DNA from: a virus
Lineage: Duplodnaviria > Heunggongvirae > Uroviricota > Caudoviricetes
Length of the DNA stretch: 13,246 nucleotides
IMG/VR virus record: IMGVR_UViG_2541047805_000002
Direction: 5' to 3' (one strand)
The notes beneath the pieces were generated by a model. It saw only the letters and a list, made by a program, of their open reading frames with translations, did not search any database and was not told the origin of the DNA. The translations under genes were made by a program, and so were the position numbers. Shown here in pieces: positions 1 through 13,246 of the stretch (its first letter is position 1; every line of letters starts with the position of its first letter).

Positions 1-258
1 ATGCAAACCGTTATTTTTGGTCGTTCGGGTTGCCCTTACTGTGTGCGTGCAAAAGATCTGGCTGAGAAATTGAGCAATGAACGCGATGATTTTCAGTATC
101 AGTATGTAGATATTCGTGCGGAAGGGATCACTAAAGAAGATCTACAACAAAAGGCAGGTAAACCCGTAGAAACCGTGCCGCAGATTTTTGTCGATCAGCA
201 ACATATCGGCGGCTATACCGATTTTGCTGCATGGGTGAAAGAAAATCTGGACGCCTGA
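1..258 (+). CDS. grxA: Glutaredoxin 1 (85 aa); window begins at its start codon, so the promoter is not visible
   Basis: 85-aa ORF with the CPYC active-site motif; translation is near-identical to E. coli GrxA as I recall it. ATG at position 1, TGA at 256-258. Confidence 0.93.
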   Translation: MQTVIFGRSGCPYCVRAKDLAEKLSNERDDFQYQYVDIRAEGITKEDLQQKAGKPVETVPQIFVDQQHIGGYTDFAAWVKENLDA

Positions 259-267
259 TCGTCTGAC

Positions 268-300
268 AAGCCCTCGCGTTGAGGGCTTTACTGATTTTTT
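268..300 (+). terminator. Putative rho-independent terminator downstream of grxA
   Basis: Inverted repeat AAGCCCTC / GAGGGCTT (268-275 and 281-288, 5-nt loop) followed by TACTGA and a T6 run (295-300). The U-tract is not directly adjacent to the stem, so this is tentative. It overlaps the 3' end of convergent ybjM. Confidence 0.4.
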
Positions 301-665
301 CTGTGCTGTGGTTTAAACAAACTACTGATAAATAAGAAACACAGTGCCCCCAGCGCACACCAGAACACCGCGCTTAGTAACCATGCCAGCTCTTGCCAGA
401 ATGAGCGCGTCGGTGAAAAAAACAGCCGCATAATGAGCATCGAACAGGGTGCCGCCAGCATTGCGCCAAACAGAGGTTTCAGGACTTCTCTACGCTGTGA
501 AAAGAAGCTGGCGACTGCTCCAGGAAGAATGAAAAATAGCAAGCCGATTTCAGGATGCCCGGCAGCCCGAAAAGCGCCTTTCATGTGCGTCGCCAGAAAA
601 AGGCACACCACAATGAAGAGGACAAAACAGCAGATTGCCCCCGCCCAACGTTGTTTATGTTTCAC
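288..665 (-). CDS. ybjM: Inner membrane protein YbjM (125 aa)
   Basis: 125-aa hydrophobic ORF matching E. coli YbjM by recall; GTG start at 665-663 preceded by AGGAGG at a 5-nt spacing; convergent with grxA as in K-12. Confidence 0.88.
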   Translation of the reverse strand: MKHKQRWAGAICCFVLFIVVCLFLATHMKGAFRAAGHPEIGLLFFILPGAVASFFSQRREVLKPLFGAMLAAPCSMLIMRLFFSPTRSFWQELAWLLSAVFWCALGALCFLFISSLFKPQHRKNQ

Positions 666-934
666 TCGTTCCTCCTGACACTGCGTCTATCGAACACATT
701 TTTCGCCAGTGTGGCGTTCAGTAAGATAAAGCCGCTTCGCATTCCATGCTAATATAGGCCAACGCAATTCATATAGCCGTTGATACCTAATGTGATTACA
801 CTAGTAAAATATATTGTTACTTTACTATCGTTTAGGTGCGCTGAATGAATCTGCGCCCTGAATTCTGGTAAAAAACATTATCGTAAATTACCATTTCTTT
901 CAACAGCTTACTAGTAAACAAGAAGTTAGCCTCC

Positions 935-2620
935 GTGAATATAAACGTCGCCGAATTGTTAAATGGGAATTACATTCTGTTATTATTTGTGGTCCTCGCG
1001 CTTGGGCTATGTCTCGGAAAGTTACGACTTGGTTCGATCCAACTGGGTAATTCCATTGGCGTTTTAGTCGTATCGCTGTTATTAGGCCAACAACATTTCA
1101 GCATTAACACCGATGCGCTTAATCTTGGCTTTATGCTGTTTATTTTCTGCGTCGGGGTCGAAGCCGGACCGAACTTTTTTTCCATTTTTTTTCGCGATGG
1201 GAAAAATTACCTAATGTTAGCACTGGTGATGGTTGGCAGTGCGCTGGTGATCGCCTTAGGGTTAGGTAAGCTGTTTGGCTGGGATATTGGCCTGACGGCC
1301 GGTATGTTAGCAGGCTCTATGACGTCGACACCGGTTCTGGTCGGTGCTGGCGATACACTGCGTCATTCCGGCATGGAAAGCAGGCAGCTCTCACTGGCAC
1401 TGGATAATCTGAGCCTCGGGTATGCCTTAACCTATTTAATCGGTCTGGTGAGTTTGATTGTTGGTGCGCGTTACTTGCCGAAATTGCAGCATCAGGACTT
1501 ACAGACCAGCGCCCAGCAAATCGCCCGCGAACGTGGCCTGGACACTGATGCCAACCGTAAGGTTTATTTACCGGTGATCCGCGCCTATCGCGTCGGCCCG
1601 GAACTGGTGGCCTGGACCGACGGCAAAAATCTGCGTGAACTGGGTATTTATCGACAAACCGGCTGCTACATTGAACGTATTCGACGTAACGGGATTCTGG
1701 CAAATCCAGACGGTGATGCCGTGCTACAAATGGGCGATGAAATAGCGTTGGTAGGCTATCCCGACGCCCATGCCCGACTCGATCCCAGCTTCCGTAACGG
1801 TAAAGAAGTTTTCGATCGTGACCTTCTCGACATGCGTATCGTCACTGAAGAAGTGGTCGTTAAAAACCATAACGCTGTAGGTAAACGTCTCGCACAACTG
1901 AAGTTGACCGATCACGGTTGCTTCCTTAACCGCGTCATTCGTAGCCAGATTGAGATGCCGATAGATGACAACGTCGTGCTTAACAAAGGTGACGTTTTAC
2001 AAGTCAGCGGCGATGCCCGCCGCGTAAAAACCATCGCCGATCGCATCGGCTTTATCTCGATTCACAGCCAGGTCACTGACCTGCTGGCATTCTGCGCCTT
2101 CTTTGTTATTGGGCTGATGATCGGGATGATCACCTTCCAGTTCAGCACATTCAGTTTCGGCATGGGGAACGCTGCCGGGTTGTTATTCGCCGGAATTATG
2201 CTGGGCTTTATGCGTGCTAACCACCCGACCTTCGGTTACATTCCGCAGGGTGCATTAAGCATGGTGAAAGAGTTCGGCTTGATGGTGTTTATGGCAGGCG
2301 TTGGTCTGAGCGCCGGTAGCGGTATTAATAACGGCCTGGGCGCGATTGGCGGTCAGATGTTGATTGCCGGATTGATTGTCAGTCTGGTGCCCGTGGTTAT
2401 CTGTTTCTTGTTCGGTGCTTATGTATTGCGAATGAACCGCGCGCTGTTGTTCGGCGCAATGATGGGCGCACGTACCTGCGCACCGGCAATGGAGATCATC
2501 AGTGATACAGCTCGCAGTAACATCCCGGCGCTGGGCTATGCGGGCACCTATGCAATCGCCAACGTCCTGCTGACGCTGGCAGGGACAATCATCGTCATGG
2601 TATGGCCAGGATTAGGATAA
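935..2620 (+). CDS. ybjL: Putative transporter YbjL (AAE-family permease, 561 aa)
   Basis: 561-aa ORF with GTG start at 935; hydrophobic N- and C-terminal membrane domains flank a soluble central region; matches E. coli YbjL by recall in sequence and length. Confidence 0.92.
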
Positions 2621-2732
2621 AACTGAAGTTGCCCTGAAAATGAAATTTTTTTGCACAACCGCAGAACTTTTCCGCAGGGCATCAGTCTTAATTAGTGCCA
2701 CTGCTTTTCTTTGATGTCCCCATTTTGTGGAG

Positions 2733-2776
2733 CCCATCAACCCCGCCATTTCGGTTCAAGGTTGATGGGTTTTTTG
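2733..2776 (+). terminator. Rho-independent terminator, probably terminating ybjL transcription
   Basis: Perfect 10-bp inverted repeat CCCATCAACC (2733-2742) / GGTTGATGGG (2760-2769) followed directly by TTTTTT (2770-2775). It is functional only on the + strand; the minus strand has no T-run after the stem. Confidence 0.6.
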
Positions 2777-2855
2777 TTGCCTGAAATTTAAGATGTTTAA
2801 AATCATGATGTTAGAAGCACTGTTTTTTAACGATGGCGACAAAATGGCGGCAGCG

Positions 2856-3074
2856 TCAAAGAGAGAGCGCCACCTGTCCTGATTTCATTGGATGCGGCTG
2901 AACTGGATTCGACTCTTTTGGTGTTGCAATCGAACGAACAAAAGTTTCATGGGTAACAAAAGTATGGCTGCAGTTAATGTTCTGGCACTGGTTATAACGC
3001 TCTTTGGTCAATGAAGATACCTGAAAACTGCTGCGAGTATGGGCGGCACTTCCACACAGTGGGCAAATCATCAT
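2856..3074 (-). CDS. ogr: Ogr/Delta-family zinc-finger late transcription activator (72 aa)
   Basis: Cys4 motif C-x2-C-x22-C-x4-C (CPLCGSAAH...CQNINC) and overall similarity to P2 Ogr by recall. I chose the ATG at 3074-3072 because GGGGAGA lies about 9 nt upstream; the track's GTG at 3107 would add 11 residues. Sits immediately downstream of D, as in P2. Confidence 0.85.
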   Translation of the reverse strand: MMICPLCGSAAHTRSSFQVSSLTKERYNQCQNINCSHTFVTHETFVRSIATPKESNPVQPHPMKSGQVALSL

Positions 3075-3104
3075 TTTTCGAGTTCTCCCCATTTTTGCTA
3101 AATT

Positions 3105-3140
3105 CACAACAATGATACCGTATTATTCCATTTTGCAAAC
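3105..3140 (-). promoter_or_regulatory. Candidate sigma70 promoter for ogr
   Basis: On the minus strand, TTGCAA (-35-like), a roughly 15-nt spacer, then TATCAT (-10-like), placed about 30-60 nt upstream of the ogr ATG. The spacer is short, so this is weak. Confidence 0.25.
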
Positions 3141-3164
3141 TTAAAAGTTCTCCATTGCGAAGAA

Positions 3165-4265
3165 TCATTCCATTTCGAAATCATCAATCCTCACTTCAAG
3201 CTCCAGACTGGTCGTAAAACCGTTATCCGGGCTGACGGTATGTGTCAGGGTGGTAATGGTCCATTCCGCATCATCTATCGGCTGTTTAAAACCACTGACC
3301 TTCACAGACATTTCCGTGTAGAGATCTGCCCGCCCTTCTGCCAGTTGTAGAGAAAATGACGCAACGCCGCGTTGCAGGCGTTCCCACTGCATTTTCGCCG
3401 CTCGTTCGGCGTTGCTCCGGTTGGCATAGGTGCGATTAAGTACCAGCACGTTTTCATCCGTACCCACCAGGTAATCGCCCTGCTTCGCTTCTGGCTCTTT
3501 CTTCTGCTTCTTAGTTCTGCGCTTACGCTTCACCGTGGTGCTTTCTTTCTTCGCAGGTTCGCGGGTATGCAACCAGCTGGCAATTACGCCCGTGTAGGCT
3601 CCGCGATCTGCCAGGGTAAATCGGTGACTGTCGCCGTCCTTGCGTGTGATAGTGATCACTGGCAGAGGTTTACCAGTGGCGCTTTTGCCCTGCCCCTGCC
3701 GGATGAATAACAGATTGCCATTTTTCACCGACGCGATGGCACCGTACTGTCTCGCCAGCCGCATCAGAAAACTGCCGTCACTCTCATTAGTCTGGTCTAT
3801 ATGCTCCACGGGCTTATCCGACAGGTCTTTACCCAGTGCCATCTTCAGCTTGTGCCGCGCGGCAATTTCCTGCACCACTTCCCCGACGGTGGTCTTATGC
3901 CACGATTTTTCACGGCGGGTATTCAGCGTTTCCCGAAAATCAGCACTTCGCGCCCGGATAGTCAGGCGGTCCGGTGCGCCAGTGTGTTCAATCTCGTCCA
4001 CTGTGAATGCCCCTTTCGGGAAAAGCGGCTGCCCCTTCCAGCCCAGCGCCAGCGTAATGACCGCACCACGGCGCGGCAGCACGATTTTTCCGTCAGCGTC
4101 ATCCAGCTCCAGATCAAGCTGGTCCGCTTCAAAGCCCCGGTTATCCGTCAGCGTCAAACTCATCAGGCGGTTATCCAGCACAGTGGTGATATCCCTGCCC
4201 TCAATACTGATGCTGAATGCGGGAGTTTTGTTGCCTTTGTTAAGCAGTTCAGAGCTGAAATTCAC
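3165..4265 (-). CDS. Phage late control gene D protein (tail protein gpD, 366 aa)
   Basis: Translation resembles P2 gpD-family tail proteins and the gene is in the U-D-ogr position. The only start that gives translational coupling is GTG at 4265-4263, which overlaps the U stop (GTGA). Confidence 0.85.
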   Translation of the reverse strand: MNFSSELLNKGNKTPAFSISIEGRDITTVLDNRLMSLTLTDNRGFEADQLDLELDDADGKIVLPRRGAVITLALGWKGQPLFPKGAFTVDEIEHTGAPDRLTIRARSADFRETLNTRREKSWHKTTVGEVVQEIAARHKLKMALGKDLSDKPVEHIDQTNESDGSFLMRLARQYGAIASVKNGNLLFIRQGQGKSATGKPLPVITITRKDGDSHRFTLADRGAYTGVIASWLHTREPAKKESTTVKRKRRTKKQKKEPEAKQGDYLVGTDENVLVLNRTYANRSNAERAAKMQWERLQRGVASFSLQLAEGRADLYTEMSVKVSGFKQPIDDAEWTITTLTHTVSPDNGFTTSLELEVRIDDFEME

Positions 4266-4747
4266 GACAGCAGCCCTCCCACCGTTTTACTGATATCGCT
4301 TAAGGCAGACGTTGCCGTGTCCTGCAGATTATTCAGTTGCGCACTGAGATCACCGAACATATCGGACAGGGATTCATCCACTCGTTTGAGCGACAGGGTG
4401 AACTCAATCCGGCGCGGCATACCGTCGCGGAAAAACTCCGTTTTAGTCTGATTCAGTCCCTCAATCACATACATACCGTAAATCGTGCCGCTGCCTTCAA
4501 TCAGGGGCCATGCTTTCCCCTGTTCTGCCATCTGCTCCAGTGCCAGCAACGACAGCCTGCCGCCTGTTATCTCCGGCATAAGAACACCGGAAAGCGTCAG
4601 CATGTCGTTTTCCGGTCCCAGAAACTGCGTGGACGGACGTCGGTTTACCCGACTGTTTGCCGCATGTCGCCAGCTGCGTTGATACTGCAGTTCCTGATAC
4701 GGCACGGTGCGCAGCATAAACACGTACAATCCCAGCACCATCATCAT
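4262..4747 (-). CDS. Phage tail protein U (gpU, 161 aa)
   Basis: Translation (MMMVLGLYVFMLRTVPYQELQYQRSWRH...) is similar to P2 gpU by recall; the ATG at 4747-4745 overlaps the stop of the T fragment (ATGA). Confidence 0.87.
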   Translation of the reverse strand: MMMVLGLYVFMLRTVPYQELQYQRSWRHAANSRVNRRPSTQFLGPENDMLTLSGVLMPEITGGRLSLLALEQMAEQGKAWPLIEGSGTIYGMYVIEGLNQTKTEFFRDGMPRRIEFTLSLKRVDESLSDMFGDLSAQLNNLQDTATSALSDISKTVGGLLS

Positions 4748-5685
4748 GCGTCGTATCCCCCCTGATCGCTGTAGTTACTCCTGGCTTTTGCCTTCAGCCT
4801 GCGTTCACGTTCATCAAGCTGGCGTGCCACCTCCCGAGCAATATCCTGCGCACTTTGTCCTGGCTGCGTCTGAATGATGATCTGCGTCGGTACCTCAATC
4901 CGTTGAACGAGCGGCACAGTGGCTGCGCGACTCACAATTGCTTCTCCACCTTTCGCGGGGAGTGCCAAAGGGTGCAACGGTGGAAGCTCTGCTGGCGCGG
5001 CAGCAACGCCCATCATTCCGGCAACAACGGCAGCCAGTGCAGCTGTATTTCTCCGGCTGGTCACATTTGCCGGGCCGTTAACAATTTCCGGCCCGTTTTC
5101 ACCGACGATGCCAAACTGCCCGCGCGGGATATACCCGCCGCTGTCATACATCCCCGCAAAGCCATACCCCCATGACGGAAAACCACCCGATGGCATCATC
5201 ACTTTACCGTCTGCATTCACCGTCGCAGGTTGCTGACGCGTCACGCTTTCCGGCAGTTTTGCCTTTGCGGCCTCTTTACTGACAATGCCAAGTTTCTCCA
5301 GCAACCAGGAAACGCCGGATTTCAGGGAGTCCAGCGGATGCATGACCATATTCAGCCCTTCCGCCAGTGCCTCTCCGAATCGCCGCCCCATTGCCGCTGC
5401 ACTCTGCAGTTCGGCAGAGGTCGACTTAACGGGCGTCAGCAGATCAGTAAACCAGCCCCACAGCGCCTGTACTTTGTCGCCAATCCACTGGAACACGGGC
5501 TTAAGCGGTTCGAACGCTGCACTGACGGGACCTGCCGCCGCTTTGAATCCTTCCACCACGCCACCAAGAAATGCGGTGATGGGTTGCCAGTATTTCCAGA
5601 CAACCAGCGCCACGCCCGCCAGTGCAGTAACCACAAGACCTATCGGACTGAGCAGAGCACCTAACAGACCAGATAGGAAGCACCA
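4744..5685 (-). pseudogene. Tail tape-measure protein gpT, C-terminal fragment only (about 300 of roughly 800 codons)
   Basis: The T frame is open from the stop at 5700-5698 down to 4744 and encodes a hydrophobic segment ([27 protein letters not shown]) followed by a Gly/Ala-rich tape-measure-like C-terminus. There is no N-terminal two-thirds and no native start; upstream sequence switches abruptly to terminase coding sequence. Confidence 0.8.
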
Positions 5686-6352
5686 TCGGATCGCCTTTCA
5701 GCTCCACCTCCACTTCTTTGGCGAAGTCGATGATGTACTGCTTAAAGACGTGGGCCTGTGCCTTACTGGCGGAAAGGAAAATCTGGTTACGCCCGGTTAG
5801 CAGGGCGTCAATCAGGGCTTCACGGGCAAAATAGAAGGTCGCGCCGATCTGGCGTGACTTCAGCAGGTTGCGGATGCGGTTGGTTTTTCCGGCTTCCCAC
5901 CAGTGGCGCTGGTAGTTGAACATGGAGGAATGGAAGATTTCTTCCAGCTTCTCAATCTGTTCATCGGTGAAAACGTTCTTTTCCGGCTGACGGCGCGGGC
6001 CTTTGTTGCGGTTGGCGACGTTAGGGTTTAAGTCGGCTTCGTTGCCGCCATTGTTAAACTTGCCGATCCGCGCATGGCGCTCCGACTGGCGCGCCAGCAG
6101 GTCAATCTCTTTGAAATCTTTCCCTTCTTTGTGCTCCTTCATAATGAGCTGGCAGTAGCGTGCGGCGGTGGTGAGCTGCATCTGATCCAGCGGCCCATAG
6201 TCACCCCACTTGTCGCGTTTTTTCCAGCTGTGAACGGTTGCAACTTTCTCGCCCAGCATTTCAGCAATGCGGGCTACGCGGTATCCCTGAAAGTACAGCA
6301 GCATGGCCTGCCGACGGGGATCGAGATCTGCGGGTGTCAGTGTGGTGTTCAT
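5678..6352 (-). pseudogene. Terminase large (ATPase) subunit gpP, N-terminal fragment only (about 225 of roughly 590 codons)
   Basis: ATG at 6352-6350. Residues 1-225 align with P2 gpP by recall (…[12 protein letters not shown]…HSWKKRD…[21 protein letters not shown]…GDPMVL). After about 5678 the frame runs through out-of-frame T-derived sequence to a stop at 5501 (track ORF 5501..6352). Confidence 0.83.
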
Positions 6353-6396
6353 GGCACAAACCTACAGCCTTGAATGAAGGCTTTCCCCGCCTGCGG

Positions 6397-6418
6397 TTTG
6401 TGTGGTTGTCGGTACAAA
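6397..6418. promoter_or_regulatory. Candidate Ogr/Delta activator-binding dyad of the late promoter for the O-N-M-L operon
   Basis: TTTGT-N12-ACAAA dyad with TGT at 6399-6401 and ACA at 6414-6416. Its centre is about 87 bp upstream of the O start codon, so roughly -55 to -60 if the transcript starts near the weak -10-like CATAAG at 6454-6459. P2 late promoters are known to carry a TGT-N12-ACA element at about -55. Confidence 0.5.
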
Positions 6419-6494
6419 TACCGCGCATTGTTTCACTGCCCCCATCACCGCAACCATAAGGCTCCAGTAAGTTTTTTCTAACGGAGCACGGCTC

Positions 6495-7328
6495 ATGACA
6501 GTGAAAGCAAAGCGTTTTCGCATCGGGGTGGAAGGTGCCACCACCGACGGACGCGAAATCCAGCGTGAATGGCTGGAACAGATGGCAGCCAGCTACAACC
6601 CGGCGGTGTATACCGCGCTGATTAACCTTGAGCACATCAAGTCTTATCTGCCGGACAGCACCTTTAACCGCTACGGCAAGGTGACGGCGCTGTTTGCTGA
6701 AGAAATCACGGAAGGTCCGCTGGCAGGCAAGATGGCGCTGTATGCCGACGTTGAGCCAACGGAGTCCCTGGTGGAACTGGTGAAAAAAGGCCAGAAATTA
6801 TTCACCTCTATGGAAGTCAGCCCGAAGTTCGCTGATACGGGCAAAGCCTACCTGGTCGGCCTGGCTGCCACTGATGACCCTGCCAGTCTGGGTACGGAAA
6901 TGCTGACATTCAGCGCCAGTGCAGCCCATAACCCGCTGGCAAACCGCAAGCAGAATCCTGCCAATCTCTTTACCGCTGCAGAGGAAACGGTGATCGAACT
7001 GGAAGAAATCCAGGACGACAAACCGTCCCTGTTTGCCCGCGTCACGGCGCTGTTTACCAAAAAAGAGCAGTCCGATGACGCCCGGTTCTCTGATGTGCAT
7101 AAGGCCGTGGAGCTGGTCGCCACTGAGCAGCAAAACCTGAGCGCACGCACCGAAAAATCCCTGTCTGAGCAGGAAGAACGCCTGTCTGAGCTGGAGACTG
7201 CCCTGCAGGCACAGCAAACCGCCTTTAACGAACTGGTGGACAAGCTGAGTCATGAAGACAGCCGCCAGGACTACCGCCAGCGTGCAACAGGCGGTAACGC
7301 CCCCGCTGACACTCTGACCAATTGCTGA
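6495..7328 (+). CDS. Capsid scaffolding protein gpO (277 aa)
   Basis: Clear similarity to P2 gpO by recall (RIGVEGATTDGR…INLEH…YLVGLAATDDPASLGTE…ATGG…TNC); GGAG about 10 nt upstream of the ATG; divergent from P as in P2. Confidence 0.9.
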   Translation: MTVKAKRFRIGVEGATTDGREIQREWLEQMAASYNPAVYTALINLEHIKSYLPDSTFNRYGKVTALFAEEITEGPLAGKMALYADVEPTESLVELVKKGQKLFTSMEVSPKFADTGKAYLVGLAATDDPASLGTEMLTFSASAAHNPLANRKQNPANLFTAAEETVIELEEIQDDKPSLFARVTALFTKKEQSDDARFSDVHKAVELVATEQQNLSARTEKSLSEQEERLSELETALQAQQTAFNELVDKLSHEDSRQDYRQRATGGNAPADTLTNC

Positions 7329-7344
7329 TGGAGCACAAAACCCG

Positions 7345-8403
7345 ATGAAGAAGAATACCCGCTTTGCTTTTAACGCTTACCTGCAGCAGCTGGCGCGTCT
7401 GAACGGTGTGGCAGTTGAAGAACTGTCCAGCAAGTTCACCGTGGAGCCGTCTGTACAGCAGACGCTGGAAGACCAGATCCAGCAGTCCGCCGCTTTCCTG
7501 ACGCTGATTAACGTCACGCCAGTGACTGAGCAGTCCGGTCAGCTGCTGGGGTTGGGTGTTGGCAGCACCATTGCCGGAACTACTGATACCACCGCGAAAG
7601 AGCGTGAACCTGTCGATCCGACGCTGATGGTCGATGTGGAATACAAATGCGAGCAGACCAACTTTGACACGGTGCTGACCTACGCGAAGCTGGACCTGTG
7701 GGCGAAATTTCAGGATTTCCAGGTGCGTATCCGTGACGCCATCGTGAAACGTCAGGCACTGGACCGCATCATGATCGGCTTTAACGGCGTGAAGCGTGCG
7801 AAAACCTCCAACCGTAGTGAAAACCCGCTGCTGCAGGATGTGAACAAAGGCTGGCTGCAGAAAATCCGTGAGGATGCACCGGATCACGTCATGGGCAGCA
7901 CCACCACAGGCGGTGAAACCACACCGGGCGCGGTGAAAGTCGGTAAAGGTGGCGAATATGCCAACCTGGACGCCGTGGTGATGGATGCCGTCAATGAGCT
8001 TATCGACGTGGTCTACCAGGACGATGACGATCTGGTGGTGATTTGCGGTCGTGAACTGTTGTCTGACAAGTATTTCCCACTGGTCAACAAAGAGCAGGAA
8101 AACAGTGAAAAACTCGCTGCCGATATGATCATCAGTCAGAAACGCATGGGTGGCCTGCAGGCCGTGCGTGCGCCGTTCTTCCCGCCGAATGCACTGCTGA
8201 TCACCCGTCTGGATAACTTGTCCATCTACTGGCAGGAAGACACCCGCCGCCGTTCAGTTATCGACAACCCGAAACGTGACCGGATTGAAAACTTTGAATC
8301 CGTTAATGAAGCCTATGTGGTTGAGGACTACCGCTGCGCCGCACTGGTGGAAAACATCCAGATTGGTGATTTCAGCGCCGCCGCAGCAGAAGCCGGAGCG
8401 TAA
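7345..8403 (+). CDS. Major capsid protein gpN (352 aa)
   Basis: 352-aa ORF called as P2 gpN-family major capsid protein from its size and position immediately after O in the conserved O-N-M-L order. Confidence 0.9.
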   Translation: MKKNTRFAFNAYLQQLARLNGVAVEELSSKFTVEPSVQQTLEDQIQQSAAFLTLINVTPVTEQSGQLLGLGVGSTIAGTTDTTAKEREPVDPTLMVDVEYKCEQTNFDTVLTYAKLDLWAKFQDFQVRIRDAIVKRQALDRIMIGFNGVKRAKTSNRSENPLLQDVNKGWLQKIREDAPDHVMGSTTTGGETTPGAVKVGKGGEYANLDAVVMDAVNELIDVVYQDDDDLVVICGRELLSDKYFPLVNKEQENSEKLAADMIISQKRMGGLQAVRAPFFPPNALLITRLDNLSIYWQEDTRRRSVIDNPKRDRIENFESVNEAYVVEDYRCAALVENIQIGDFSAAAAEAGA

Positions 8404-8406
8404 ACC

Positions 8407-9057
8407 ATGAGCCTGAGTCCCGCACGGCAGCATCGCCTGCGCGTTCAGGCTGAACAGGCCGCCCGTGAGGGCGGCAGTGTTCGCCACGCGTCGGGCTATG
8501 ACCTGATGCTGCTGCAGCTGGCGGAAGACCGCCGCCGTCTCAAGGGCGTTCAGTCCACGGTGAAAAAAGCGGAAATAAAGGTGGAGCTGCTGCCGAAATA
8601 TGCCGCCTGGGCGGAGGGCGTCCTGGCTGCCGGAGGCGCTCAACAGGATGACGTGCTGATGTACGTGATGCTGTGGCGCATTGATGCCGGAGATTATGCC
8701 GGGGCGCTGGAGATCGGGCGTCATGCCCTGCGTCATGGCTGGGTGATGCCTCTGGGTAACCGCAACGTGCAGACCGTGCTGGCAGAGGAAATGGCAGATG
8801 CAGCGCAGAGCGCAATGCTTGCCGCTACCGGCTTTGATGCCGATCTGTTGCTGCAGACGCTGGAGCTGACAGACGGTCTGGATATGCCGGACCAGTCACG
8901 GGCGCGTCTGCATAAAGCGATTGGCGCTGTCCTGAGTGAAAGCAATCCGGCTTCCGCCCTTAATCATCTCAACCATGCGTTACAGCTCGATCCCCGCTGT
9001 GGCGTGAAAAAAGACAAACAGCAGCTGGAGCGCAGACTGCGCAATGACAGCCGCTGA
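8407..9057 (+). CDS. Terminase small / endonuclease subunit gpM (216 aa)
   Basis: Similarity to P2 gpM by recall (…QDDVLMYVMLWRIDAGDYAGALEI…LELTDGLDMPD…); position N-M-L. Confidence 0.87.
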   Translation: MSLSPARQHRLRVQAEQAAREGGSVRHASGYDLMLLQLAEDRRRLKGVQSTVKKAEIKVELLPKYAAWAEGVLAAGGAQQDDVLMYVMLWRIDAGDYAGALEIGRHALRHGWVMPLGNRNVQTVLAEEMADAAQSAMLAATGFDADLLLQTLELTDGLDMPDQSRARLHKAIGAVLSESNPASALNHLNHALQLDPRCGVKKDKQQLERRLRNDSR

Positions 9058-9152
9058 CAGAACGTGCCCCCGCGCACGGGCGGCACGGGGTGGCGAAAGG
9101 CATAGCCACATCAAAATCCCGTCCACCGCCCTCTATTTCAGGAGAAAGCAGC

Positions 9153-9617
9153 ATGAAGTTTGTTGCGCCAGAACAGGCACCGGAACAGGCGGAAATCATC
9201 AGAAATACGCCGTTCTGGCCTGATGTGGACCTGTCGGAGTTTCGCAGCGTGATGCGCACTGACGGCACGGTGACGCAGCCGCGTTTAAAGCAGGTTGCCC
9301 TGTCGGCAATTTCGGAGGTCAACGCAGAGCTGTATGAGTTTCGCAGACGTCAGCAGATGCTGGGATATGCCTCGCTGGCAGAGGTTCCGGCGGAACAGCT
9401 GGACGGCAAAAGTGAGCGCATTCAGCACTATTTCAACGCGGTTTACTGCTGGGCACGCGCCATGCTCAACGAACGATACCAGGACTATGACGCCACGGCA
9501 TCCGGTGTGAAGCGGGGCGAAGAACTGGCAGAAGCCAGCGGTGATTTGTGGCGTGACGCCCGCTGGGCCATCAGCCGGGTACAGGATGCGCCGCACTGCA
9601 CAGTGGAGCTTATCTGA
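9153..9617 (+). CDS. Head completion/stabilization protein gpL (154 aa)
   Basis: ATG at 9153 with GGAGA 7 nt upstream, preferred over the track start at 9090. C-terminus ends …TVELI, as I recall for P2 gpL. Its stop overlaps the X start (ATGA). Confidence 0.83.
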   Translation: MKFVAPEQAPEQAEIIRNTPFWPDVDLSEFRSVMRTDGTVTQPRLKQVALSAISEVNAELYEFRRRQQMLGYASLAEVPAEQLDGKSERIQHYFNAVYCWARAMLNERYQDYDATASGVKRGEELAEASGDLWRDARWAISRVQDAPHCTVELI

Positions 9618-9820
9618 TGAAAGTGCGTGCGCATCAGTATGACACGGTGGACGCGCTTTGCTGGCGTCATTACGGGCGCACGCAGGGTGTCACGGAGCAG
9701 GTACTGAAGGCAAATCCGGGGCTTGCCGAATACGGCCCCTTTTTACCTCACGGGCTGCAGGTGGAGCTGCCGGACATTCCGACCACCACCACCGTGCAGA
9801 CCGTCCAGCTATGGGACTGA
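9617..9820 (+). CDS. Tail protein X (gpX, 67 aa)
   Basis: 67-aa ORF similar to P2 gpX by recall (…DTVDALCWRHYGRT…ANPGLAE…LPHG…VELPD…); translationally coupled to L. Confidence 0.85.
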   Translation: MKVRAHQYDTVDALCWRHYGRTQGVTEQVLKANPGLAEYGPFLPHGLQVELPDIPTTTTVQTVQLWD

Positions 9821-9823
9821 ATT

Positions 9824-10039
9824 ATGACGCTTGAGCGAATCAGCGCCTTTATCACGTATTGCATCGCCGTCGTGCTGGCCTGGCTGGGCGATTTGTCCAT
9901 CAAGGATGCCTCAACGCTGGGCGGCCTGATGATTGGTGTGCTGATGCTGGCTATCAACTGGTACTACAAACACAAAGCCTACCAGCTTCTGCGCGACGGG
10001 CAGATCTCGCGGGAGGACTATGAATCCATCAATCGTTAA
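9824..10039 (+). CDS. Putative class II holin, pinholin-like (71 aa)
   Basis: Two predicted transmembrane segments (ISAFITYCIAVVLAWLG and TLGGLMIGVLMLAINWYY) followed by a charged C-terminal tail; sits between X and the endolysin where the P2 holin Y lies; architecture resembles the phage 21 S21 pinholin. Confidence 0.6.
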   Translation: MTLERISAFITYCIAVVLAWLGDLSIKDASTLGGLMIGVLMLAINWYYKHKAYQLLRDGQISREDYESINR

Positions 10040-10373
10040 ACGCTGCCTTGTCGGGGCCGTGCTGGCTATTGCTGCCACGCTGCCGGGTTTTCAGCAGCTT
10101 CACACCTCCGTGGAGGGGCTGAAACTGATTGCCGATTACGAAGGTTGTCGTCTGCAGCCGTATCAGTGCAGCGCGGGTGTCTGGACCGACGGCATTGGTA
10201 ATACATCTGGCGTCATTCCAGGCAAAACCATTACGGAACGACAGGCAGCGGAAGGACTGATCTCCAACGTGCTGCGTGTGGAGCGGTCACTGGAAAGGTG
10301 TGTGAAGCAACAGCCACCGCAACCGGAGGCCCGGTATGACGCTTTATATCGGGATGAACAATACCAGCGGTAA
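10020..10373 (+). pseudogene. SAR-type endolysin (T4-lysozyme/P1 Lyz-like), truncated after about 100 residues
   Basis: N-terminal signal-anchor-like segment (KRCLVGAVLAIAATLPGF) followed by the lysozyme catalytic-region motif EGCRLQPYQCSAGVWTDGIGNT, which closely matches P1 Lyz by recall. The C-terminal lobe is missing; the ORF ends 37 nt into gene W. Confidence 0.75.
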
Positions 10374-10695
10374 AGCCATTACTGATATTGACCATCTGCG
10401 TCAGTCGGTGCGGGACATTCTACTGACACCGCAGGGTTGCCGCATTGCCCGTCGTGAATATGGTTCCCTGCTGTCGACACTGATAGACCAGCCACAAAAT
10501 CCGGCATTACGCCTGCAGGTCATGTCGGCAGTGTATGTGGCGCTGAGTCGCTGGGAGCCACGGCTGACGCTGGATTCCATCACCATTAAAAGCAATTTTG
10601 ACGGTTCAATGGTGGTGGGGCTGACCGGGCGGCGTAATAACGGTGTGCCTGTTTCCCTTTCCGTATCAACAGGAGCAGAGAATGGCAGTGATTGA
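10336..10695 (+). CDS. Baseplate assembly protein W (gpW, 119 aa)
   Basis: Similarity to P2 gpW along its length by recall (…YGSLL…IDQPQ…PAL…WEPR…FDG…LTG…); GGAGG 6 nt upstream of the ATG. Confidence 0.88.
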   Translation: MTLYIGMNNTSGKAITDIDHLRQSVRDILLTPQGCRIARREYGSLLSTLIDQPQNPALRLQVMSAVYVALSRWEPRLTLDSITIKSNFDGSMVVGLTGRRNNGVPVSLSVSTGAENGSD

Positions 10696-11590
10696 CCTTT
10701 CGCAGTTGCCTGCGCCGCAGATTGTCGATGTGCCGGACTTTGAGACGCTGCTTGCCGAACGCAAGGCCGAATTTGTTGTGCTTCATCCGAAAGATGAGCA
10801 GGAAGCCGTGATCCGCACGCTGGAACTGGAATCTGAACCCGTCACCAAATTGCTGCAGGAGAACGCTTACCGTGAGTTGCTTCTGCGCCAGCGCATTAAC
10901 GAAGCCGCGCAGGCTGTGATGGTGGCTTACGCGATGGGCGGCGATCTTGACCAGCTCGCTGCCAACTACAACGTGAAACGCCTGACGGTGACGCCTGCTG
11001 ATAATGACGCTGTGCCACCCGTTGCGGCTGTGATGGAAAGCGATGAAGCGTTACGCCTGCGTGTGCCTGCAGCCTTTGAAGGGCTTTCTGTTGCGGGGCC
11101 AACTGCCGCTTATGAATTTCATGCCCGAAGCGCCGACGGTCGGGTGGCGGATGCCAGTGCAACCAGTCCGGCACCTGCAGAGGTGGTACTGACTGTCCTG
11201 AGTCGTGAAGGCGACGGAACAGCAGAAAAAGACTTGCTGGATGTGGTGGAGAAAGCCCTGAACAGTGAGAACGTCCGCCCGGTGGCTGACCGTCTGACGG
11301 TTCGCAGCGCAGAAATCATCCCGTACCGTGTGGAAGCTACCATTTTTCTTTATCCGGGACCGGAAGCAGAGCCGGTAATGGCAGCGGCAAAAGTCAGCCT
11401 GCAGAGGTACATCGCCAGTCAGACGCGGCTCGGTCGGGATATTCGCCGTAGTGCTATTTTTGCCGCGCTGCATGTTGAGGGTGTTCAACGTGTGGAGCTG
11501 GCTTCACCGCTGGCTGATGTGGTCCTGAACAAAACGCAGGCGGCATCATGTACGCAGTGGAGCGTGACCAACGGGGGAACGGATGAATAG
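10682..11590 (+). CDS. Baseplate assembly protein J (gpJ, 302 aa)
   Basis: ATG at 10682 with AGGAG upstream, preferred over the track start at 10643. Called as P2 gpJ-family baseplate protein from its length and its W-J-I-H position. Confidence 0.87.
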   Translation: MAVIDLSQLPAPQIVDVPDFETLLAERKAEFVVLHPKDEQEAVIRTLELESEPVTKLLQENAYRELLLRQRINEAAQAVMVAYAMGGDLDQLAANYNVKRLTVTPADNDAVPPVAAVMESDEALRLRVPAAFEGLSVAGPTAAYEFHARSADGRVADASATSPAPAEVVLTVLSREGDGTAEKDLLDVVEKALNSENVRPVADRLTVRSAEIIPYRVEATIFLYPGPEAEPVMAAAKVSLQRYIASQTRLGRDIRRSAIFAALHVEGVQRVELASPLADVVLNKTQAASCTQWSVTNGGTDE

Positions 11591-12188
11591 TCTGCTGCCA
11601 CCGGGTTCAACGCCACTGGAGCGCCGACTGGCGCAAACCTGTAGCGGGATTTCTGATCTGCAGGTGTCACTGCGTGACTTGTGGAATCCGGCAACCTGTC
11701 CGGTCAGTTTCCTGCCTTATCTCGCCTGGGCGTTCTCTGTGGATCGCTGGGACGAGGGCTGGACAGAAAGCGTCAAACGCCAGGTAGTGAAGGATGCTTT
11801 TTATATTCATCAGCACAAAGGAACCACCAGTGCCGTACGGCGGGTGGTGGAGCCGTTCGGCTTCCTGATCCGCATTATTGAGTGGTGGCAGACCGGAGAA
11901 ACACCGGGCACGTTTCGTCTGGACATTGGTGTGCAGGACCAGGGCATCACTGAAGATACCTATCTGGAACTTGAGCGACTGATAAGCGATGCCAAACCAT
12001 GTAGCCGTCACATGATCGGCATGTCCATCAATCTGCAGACCAGCGGCCCGCATTGGGTGGGAGCCGCCAGTTATCTTGGCGAAGAAATCACGATCTATCC
12101 GTATATCAACGAAACAATTATTTCCGGCGGCACCGCGCATGAAGGCGGGGCGGTCCATGTTATTGACACAATGAGAGTGAATCCATGA
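11583..12188 (+). CDS. Baseplate/tail protein I (gpI, 201 aa)
   Basis: Assigned from its position between J and H and from 8-nt overlap with the J stop; consistent with P2 gpI-family proteins. Confidence 0.83.
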   Translation: MNSLLPPGSTPLERRLAQTCSGISDLQVSLRDLWNPATCPVSFLPYLAWAFSVDRWDEGWTESVKRQVVKDAFYIHQHKGTTSAVRRVVEPFGFLIRIIEWWQTGETPGTFRLDIGVQDQGITEDTYLELERLISDAKPCSRHMIGMSINLQTSGPHWVGAASYLGEEITIYPYINETIISGGTAHEGGAVHVIDTMRVNP

Positions 12189-13246
12189 GCACAAAATTTT
12201 ATACCCTGCTGACGGATATTGGCGCGGCGAAACTTGCCAGCGCCGCCGCGCTCGGTGTGCCGCTAAAAATTACCCATATGGCGGTGGGCGATGGCGGCGG
12301 AGCATTGCCGACGCCGGACGCAAAGCAGACTGCACTGGTAAATGAGAAACGCCGGGCTGCGCTGAATATGCTCTATATCGACCCGCAGAACAGCAGCCAG
12401 ATTATTGCTGAACAGGTGATCCCTGAAAATGAGGGTGGTTGGTGGATACGTGAAGTGGGTCTGTTTGATGAGTCCGGGGCATTGATTGCCGTAGGCAACT
12501 GCCCGGAAAGCTATAAGCCGCAACTGGCTGAAGGCAGCGGGCGCACCCAGACCGTGCGCATGGTGTTGATTACCAGCAGCACGGACAATATCACCCTGAA
12601 AATCGACCCTGCCGTCGTGCTGGCAACCCGCAAGTATGTGGATGACAAGGTACTGGAGCTGAAGGTGTTCGTGGATGATAAGATGGCAAAACATCTTGCC
12701 GCACCGGACCCGCATTCACAGTATGCACCCAAAGAAAGCCCGACATTGACCGGAACACCCAAAGCGCCAACGCCAGCGGAGGGGAATAACACCACGCAGA
12801 TTGCGACCACCGCGTTTGTTCAGGCGGCACTGATGGCCCTTATTAATGGTGCGCCAGCCACACTGGATACGCTGAAAGAAATTGCCGCTGCCATTAATAA
12901 TGACCCGAAATTCAGTACCACTATTAACAATGCGCTGGCACTGAAAGCGCCGCTGTCAAGTCCGGCACTCACCGGAACGCCAACAGCCCCCACTGCCGCA
13001 CAGTCGGTTAACAATACACAGATTGCCACTACGGCTTTTGTGAAATCGGCGATTGCGGCAATGGTGGGTTCTGCACCTGCGGCACTGGATACACTGAACG
13101 AACTGGCGGCGGCGCTGGGGAATGACCCGAACTTTGCCACGACAATGCTTAATGCACTGGCAGGTAAACAACCGCTGGACAATACGCTGACTAATTTGAG
13201 TGGAAAGGATGTAGCTGGTCTTCTCGCATACCTTGGTTTGGGAGAA
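12185..13246 (+). CDS. Tail fibre protein H (gpH), 5' partial: 354 codons, runs off the window end
   Basis: Absent from the ORF track because there is no stop in the window. ATG at 12185 overlaps the I stop (ATGA). The N-terminal region (MSTKFYTLLTDIGAAKLASAAALGVPLKITHMAVGDGGGALP…) resembles P2 gpH by recall, followed by fibre-type repeats. Confidence 0.85.
   Translation, partial: MSTKFYTLLTDIGAAKLASAAALGVPLKITHMAVGDGGGALPTPDAKQTALVNEKRRAALNMLYIDPQNSSQIIAEQVIPENEGGWWIREVGLFDESGALIAVGNCPESYKPQLAEGSGRTQTVRMVLITSSTDNITLKIDPAVVLATRKYVDDKVLELKVFVDDKMAKHLAAPDPHSQYAPKESPTLTGTPKAPTPAEGNNTTQIATTAFVQAALMALINGAPATLDTLKEIAAAINNDPKFSTTINNALALKAPLSSPALTGTPTAPTAAQSVNNTQIATTAFVKSAIAAMVGSAPAALDTLNELAAALGNDPNFATTMLNALAGKQPLDNTLTNLSGKDVAGLLAYLGLGE
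12737..13180 (+). repeat. Two tandem divergent repeats of about 222 nt (74 aa) inside tail-fibre gene H
   Basis: Protein repeat units start at H residues 185 and 259: SPTLTGTPKAPTPAEGNNTTQIATTAFVQAALMALINGAPATLDTLKEIAAAINNDPKFSTTINNALALKAPLS versus SPALTGTPTAPTAAQSVNNTQIATTAFVKSAIAAMVGSAPAALDTLNELAAALGNDPNFATTMLNALAGKQPLD. Confidence 0.7.

Follow-up and report, generated by a model that had tools for sequence, protein, structure and literature searches.

A probable internal inversion with deletions joins tape-measure and terminase gene fragments in a P2-like prophage of Escherichia coli HVH 164

Cryptic or 'grounded' prophages such as e14, Rac and DLP12 have been immobilised by deletions and inversions, and they may keep cargo genes as well as an active invertase (PMC6379469; PMC4272514). 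Inversions within the P2-like prophages of EPEC E2348/69 have been described as well (PMC4272514). One prophage of this strain (NC_011601.1, 866–886 kb; here L001) occupies a locus reading ybjL-ogr-D-U-T and carries V-W-J-I-H in inverted orientation (L001 20063–23535 versus 25698–29170 of the UMNK88 locus introduced below), with a truncated S gene and about 174 bp lost. As one end of this inversion lies exactly at the centre of a cix-like crossover site (L002 29170), it was plausibly driven by the invertase acting at a secondary site. A prophage at the same rcdA/rybB/ybjL site is found in strain UMNK88 (NC_017641.1, 914–949 kb; L002) and served as our unrearranged reference. It shows the canonical P2 order with P and T about 17 kb apart on opposite strands. 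The prophage of E. coli HVH 164, which is the subject of this work, shares with that of UMNK88 the integration site, the gene set and order and an identity of 99.9–100% over every retained segment, but differs from it by a 13.4-kb inversion and three deletions, whereas in UMNK88 the genes P (588 aa), T (1,025 aa), FI, FII, E, K, lysA, lysB, lysC, R, S and V are all full-length. With E2348/69 it has in common the locus and the fact of being internally rearranged; in E2348/69, however, P and T are intact, and the breakpoints in HVH 164 have no relation to cix sites.

The stretch of DNA analysed here (the window, 13,246 nucleotides) comes from E. coli HVH 164 (4-5953081; NCBI GCA_000458495.1, scaffold KE700470.1 of 3.41 Mb), a short-read assembly from 2013 in which 7.5 kb separate an N gap from the tape-measure/terminase junction (J1). 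We compared it, together with 20 kb of the same scaffold (L014; window coordinate = L014 + 19) ending within a GmrSD gene, with both loci named above and with a Logan contig (L015) of run SRR958310 that was made with a different assembler from NCBI's. Genes and domains were assigned using an ORF listing, megablast, blastn against UMNK88, Pfam, PHROGs and Rfam.

The window starts with the chromosomal flank (1–2620) containing grxA (1–258, plus strand), ybjM (288–665, minus strand) and ybjL (935–2620, plus strand), all found as ORFs and with equivalents annotated in E2348/69 and UMNK88. The RybB sRNA gene follows (2700–2778, plus strand; Rfam RF00110, full length with 105 bits) and abuts the prophage. 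Its last 14 nt (2765–2778, ATGGGTTTTTTGTT) match the 14-bp direct repeat present at both ends of the UMNK88 prophage, and therefore represent the att core at the right prophage end (attR), with prophage DNA beginning just right of 2778. Since this core is the 3' end of rybB, the phage family probably integrates into the 3' end of the sRNA gene and thereby regenerates it.

Tested against the late-gene modules of the P2 family (Q/P, O-N-M-L-X-Y-K, V-W-J-I-H and FI-FII-E-T-U-D-ogr), the prophage proved to be P2-like (Peduoviridae), as an earlier note on this DNA had proposed. The Pfam domains Phage_GPO_N, Phage_cap_P2, Phage_term_smal, Phage_GPL, Phage_tail_X, GPW_gp25, Baseplate_J, Tail_P2_I, Phage_P2_GpU, Phage_GPD and Ogr_Delta were found on called genes, and deposited P2-family phages, among them Escherichia phage 500465-1, are about 97% identical at the nucleotide level. 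Compared to UMNK88 only 7 differences were counted in about 15,670–15,700 bases of prophage DNA, and thus all pieces belong to one prophage lineage. The chromosomal flank (1–2482) shows 13 mismatches in about 2.5 kb, as against 7 in about 15.7 kb for the prophage. Such a much greater similarity of the prophage than of the chromosome would be consistent with a recent horizontal spread of the same phage.

The left part of the prophage lies on the minus strand. It comprises the intact late-gene activator ogr (2856–3074; Ogr_Delta on a 72-aa gene, gapless against UMNK88), the intact tail genes D (3165–4265; Phage_GPD) and U (4262–4747; Phage_P2_GpU), and T' (4744–5675), a 5'-truncated pseudogene consisting of tape-measure codons 717–1025 (309 codons) that is identical to T of UMNK88. 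Directly next to it and on the same strand is 'P (5674–6352), which contains codons 1–226 of gpP and the Pfam domains Terminase_5 and Terminase_6N. PHROGs also identified the two partners as terminase large subunit (4e-98) and as tail tape measure (phrog_28, 6e-37; phrog_5690, 4e-127). The earlier note had described a gpP-like minus frame that runs into out-of-frame sequence next to a gpT-like frame open from 5697, and had placed the junction between 5670 and 5690. Minus-strand translation confirmed both frames. The first 226 residues of a 283-aa ORF (5501–6352; EQS86464.1, annotated as 'hypothetical protein') are those of UMNK88 gpP (WP_001098438.1), ending in KGDPMVLP, after which the ORF continues out of frame through tape-measure sequence to its stop. 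The other frame, open from 5697 behind a stop at 5698–5700, encodes residues S717 to 1025 of the UMNK88 tape measure (WP_001282735.1).

Using blastn against UMNK88, window 1–5675 was assigned to the reverse complement of L002 41840–36166 (14 mismatches, 13 of them in the chromosomal flank) and window 5674–10321 to L002 19001–23648, which puts J1 at 5674/5675 and hence inside the proposed bracket. A three-way alignment with both parents fixed the breakpoint to the base, namely to T codon 717 and P codon 226, and revealed a clean join with a 2-bp microhomology (TA) at 5674–5675 and zero inserted bases. J1 is a true structural junction rather than a chance pattern.

To the right of 'P all genes of the window are encoded on the plus strand, and the opposite strands of ogr-D-U-T' and O to H that had been noticed before are borne out by the gene map. 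The head and early lysis genes O (6495–7328), N (7345–8403), M (8407–9057), L (9153–9617), X (9617–9820) and the holin gene Y (9824–10039) are intact according to ORFs and Pfam, and the whole block (6495–10039) aligns to UMNK88 without gaps and with 4 mismatches. It is followed by K' (10020–10373), in which codons 1–100 of the lysozyme gene K are fused to 3' V sequence, giving a 117-aa ORF (EQS86471.1). This second junction (J2, 10320–10321), which the earlier note had missed, marks a 2,608-bp deletion (L002 23649–26256) with a 2-bp microhomology (CA) and the loss of the K C-terminus, lysA, lysB, lysC, R, S and nearly all of V. Pfam identified the baseplate and tail-fibre block behind it as W (10336–10695), J (10682–11590), I (11583–12188) and the constant N-terminal part of H (12185–13246), and this block (10336–13246) is 100% identical to L002 26257–29183. 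Window and contig end with a cix-like crossover site (13221–13246, TTCTCGCATACCTTGGTTTGGGAGAA), the boundary of the invertible tail-fibre segment.

The next contig begins exactly on the partner site CTTCTCCCAAACCAACGTTTAAGAAAA (L014 15159–15185). With both contig ends on crossover sites, the 1,930-N scaffold gap between them (L014 13229–15158) corresponds to the invertible tail-fibre segment, which has 1,863 bp in UMNK88. The position of the contig ends and the intact invertase gene nearby suggest that both orientations of the segment were present in the sequenced culture, and the segment may still be able to flip in the defective prophage.

Right of the gap we found the intact gene of the Cin-like invertase (L014 15241–15807), a 252-aa fragment of the sheath protein FI, a 280-aa C-terminal fragment of gpP (Terminase_6N/6C, plus strand), the portal gene Q (plus strand) and GmrSD (minus strand). 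The two accessory hotspots therefore lie outside the window as had been predicted, with the invertase at the G-FI position and GmrSD at the cos-proximal one. The latter gene, of the GmrSD type (type IV restriction), adjoins Q as cargo (L014 18618–20354; L002 15066–16847) and appears to be kept in HVH 164, where the sequence obtained runs off the end of the locus. About 10.9 kb right of J1, at L014 16551/16552, codons 1–201 of FI join gpP from codon 256 onwards. This third junction (J3) is again clean, with a 2-bp overlap (AT). All three fusions are out of frame, and an in-frame chimeric protein would thus not be made.

Taken together, the HVH 164 locus reads, in UMNK88 coordinates, L002 41821–36166 (reverse complement), 19001–23648, 26257–29184, the N gap, 31048–32441 and 18914–15111 (reverse complement), with each segment present at most once and 99.9–100% identical to this one reference. 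J1 and J3 have a complementary topology and bound a single block (L002 19001–32441, 13.4 kb) that is inverted relative to both prophage ends, its contiguity across the tail-fibre gap resting on the scaffolding and on colinearity with UMNK88. Its two ends are gpP codon 226 and FI codon 201, and the genes in between are O, N, M, L, X, Y, K', W, J, I, H and that of the invertase. An internal inversion thus accounts for the gene order, as suggested in the earlier note. The inversion is not the single clean one between T and P that had been envisaged there, as 86 bp of P (L002 18915–19000) are lost at one end of the block and 3,724 bp (L002 32442–36165) with the FI C-terminus, FII, E, E' and T codons 1–716 at the other. 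Accordingly, the map beyond the window was foreseen correctly for the P C-terminus on the plus strand followed by Q, whereas FII, E, the T N-terminus and the FI C-terminus are absent; in place of the expected reciprocal joint of T N-terminus and P C-terminus, the second junction connects FI and P.

At all three junctions the join is clean and the microhomology is exactly 2 bp long (TA, CA and AT). According to the standard formula (k+1)(1/4)^k(3/4)^2, an overlap of at least 2 bp is expected with a probability of about 0.156 per random blunt join and of about 0.004 for three of three. IS elements, foreign or inserted DNA were not present at J1, J2 or J3, and a repeat scan near J1 detected no repeat of at least 20 nt with at least 90% match. 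Clean joins, a microhomology of a few bp and the absence of long homology agree with microhomology-mediated illegitimate recombination, as do the loss of DNA at both block ends and the independence from repeats. We are therefore rather confident that J1 is one of the two ends of an internal inversion, accompanied by deletions, that arose by illegitimate recombination in a single defective P2-like prophage. Each of the three joins would then be independent of homology, with about 2 bp of microhomology involved. The inverted block could have been produced by two double-strand breaks, degradation of the ends and rejoining in the reversed direction, or by a comparable template switch during replication, or a reciprocal inversion might have been followed by a 3.8-kb deletion erasing one junction. 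J2 would be a separate deletion that took the K C-terminus and lysA to V.

E. coli alternative end-joining, for which RecBCD and LigA would be the relevant enzymes, and FoSTeS/MMBIR template switching, which would involve replication restart, give deletion-inversion-deletion patterns. It could also be, though we regard it as improbable, that all three junctions with their six breakpoints within 17 kb were formed in one event. This might have been a template-switching excursion of the FoSTeS/MMBIR type giving the deletion-inversion-deletion pattern, or a multi-break end-joining perhaps set off by abortive prophage induction or by nuclease attack on the prophage. The pattern in HVH 164 is equally attainable by two or three sequential simple events, and no intermediate genome with a partial rearrangement was found among 5,426 complete E. 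coli genomes. If true, the single event would represent a natural, localised complex rearrangement in a bacterium that inactivated a prophage in one step.

Much less probable is a role of the prophage's own Cin/Gin-type serine invertase, acting at secondary (quasi) crossover sites and leaving 2-bp cores. Its gene is intact and lies inside the inverted block, all three overlaps have exactly the size of a serine-recombinase stagger, and the E2348/69 prophage at the same site, with an inversion from V to H ending at the centre of a cix-like site, indicates that invertase-linked rearrangements do occur in this prophage family. We therefore scored all six parental breakpoints against the crossover consensus TTCTCNNAAACC-NN-GGTTTNNGAGAA; crossover sites of these invertases are 26 bp long, with 12-bp inverted half-sites around a 2-bp core. 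While the natural sites (L002 29158–29184 and 31048–31074) reached 18 and 19 of 20, the breakpoints scored 1–5 and so did not exceed the background mean of 5.0, and an origin from quasi-sites was rejected. Moreover, a conservative site-specific inversion loses no DNA, but HVH 164 lacks 86 bp and 3,724 bp and has two different breakpoints in P, and J2 is a deletion between directly oriented points.

The Logan contig stops in gene W (L014 10467, window 10486), 165 bp past J2, where the NCBI contig continues. A second P2-like prophage located elsewhere in the genome, with the same sequence from W onwards, may be the reason for this stop. Such a second prophage, and also the lack of a strictly reciprocal junction between T N-terminus and P C-terminus, would fit the idea of two P2-like prophages in head-to-head arrangement that decayed independently, with a deletion that fused T' of one to 'P of the other. 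The earlier note had regarded a missing reciprocal junction as speaking against the inversion and had named two separately decayed prophages as the alternative. The junction is indeed missing, but the two-prophage alternative is unsupported, with all segments occurring at most once, and we consider its chance to be very small. Under this reading the locus would have to consist of three pieces in alternating orientation (ogr-T' reversed, 'P-FI' forward and P'-Q-GmrSD reversed). None of the genes occurs twice, the two P fragments complement each other except for the 86 bp, every piece is 99.9–100% identical to a single reference prophage, and no second att core or integrase was found between the pieces within 20 kb.

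Similarly small is the chance that J1 is a chimera of the assembly or library that did not exist in the cell. The scaffold from 2013 is built from short reads and has an N gap 7.5 kb away, and neither J1 nor J3 was found in any complete genome (0 of 5,426 from E. coli). Against a chimera, both junctions are located inside contigs and away from the scaffold gap, and each of them independently implies the same inverted block. The Logan contig is 100% identical over 10,467 bases spanning J1 and J2 and is unbranched despite the different assembler, so that the parental arrangement is not detectably present in these reads; the NCBI and Logan assemblies may go back to one short-read data set. In addition, three contigs are reported that contain both strain-specific ORFs, the chimeric one and K'. 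Based on short-read assemblies, the contig-internal position of the junctions and the agreement with Logan, an assembly artefact at J1 or J3 is unlikely. Finally, although inversions of the E. coli chromosome most often arise by recombination between prophages, IS elements or rrn operons (PMC6379469), an inversion by homologous recombination or by IS elements, with inverted repeats in P and in T, was rejected as the least probable explanation of all, as the parents share only 2 bp at each breakpoint, no IS or extra sequence is present at the junctions and the short imperfect arms of 13–20 nt detected around J1 do not lie at the breakpoint, where the earlier note had suggested looking for short inverted repeats.

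With J1 and J3 absent from the complete genomes, the rearrangement, which we attribute to illegitimate recombination, is specific to the strain or lineage. Consistent with this, the exact 46-nt J1 pattern had zero matches in the GTDB representative genomes, the exact J2 was also absent among the 5,426 complete E. coli genomes, and a literature search yielded general context only, with the rearrangement itself undescribed. In five complete E. coli genomes (N196, N169, N137, N73 and 01G17CRGN001) K and V/W have been brought close to each other by deletions of different extent. The loss of the lysis/R/S/V region thus seems to recur independently in this prophage family. Tail protein I was found in at least ten other genomes. 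In an E. coli with the same tail protein I (GCA_052765945.1, CM127648.1; L004, 7000–16600) the prophage has V and W on the other strand, lacks gene calls for J, H, sheath and T as well as lysA, lysB and lysC, and represents a further, independently scrambled prophage copy.

Judged by gene content, the genes for the terminase large subunit, tape measure, sheath, tube, E/E', endolysin and spanins as well as R, S and V have been destroyed in HVH 164, and the prophage should therefore be unable to package its DNA, assemble tails or lyse the cell, so that it probably persists as a locked-in remnant. As the retained ogr, D, U, head, baseplate, invertase, Q and GmrSD genes are essentially identical to those of UMNK88, this decay must be very recent. 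The HVH 164 prophage resembles the grounded prophages in accumulating deletions and inversions but differs from them in its very early stage of decay. The rearrangement adds a new case to a well-known kind of event, ordinary prophage decay, and the junction reveals no new gene, system or mechanism.

In summary, the HVH 164 locus provides a base-resolved example of the very early inactivation of a prophage by homology-independent rearrangement, and it shows that an inversion need not be dismissed because its reciprocal junction is missing. For annotation it follows that the 'hypothetical proteins' EQS86464.1 and EQS86471.1 of HVH 164 are artefacts of pseudogene fusion, and that this prophage should be counted as defective even though it is almost perfectly identical to a relative that looks functional.
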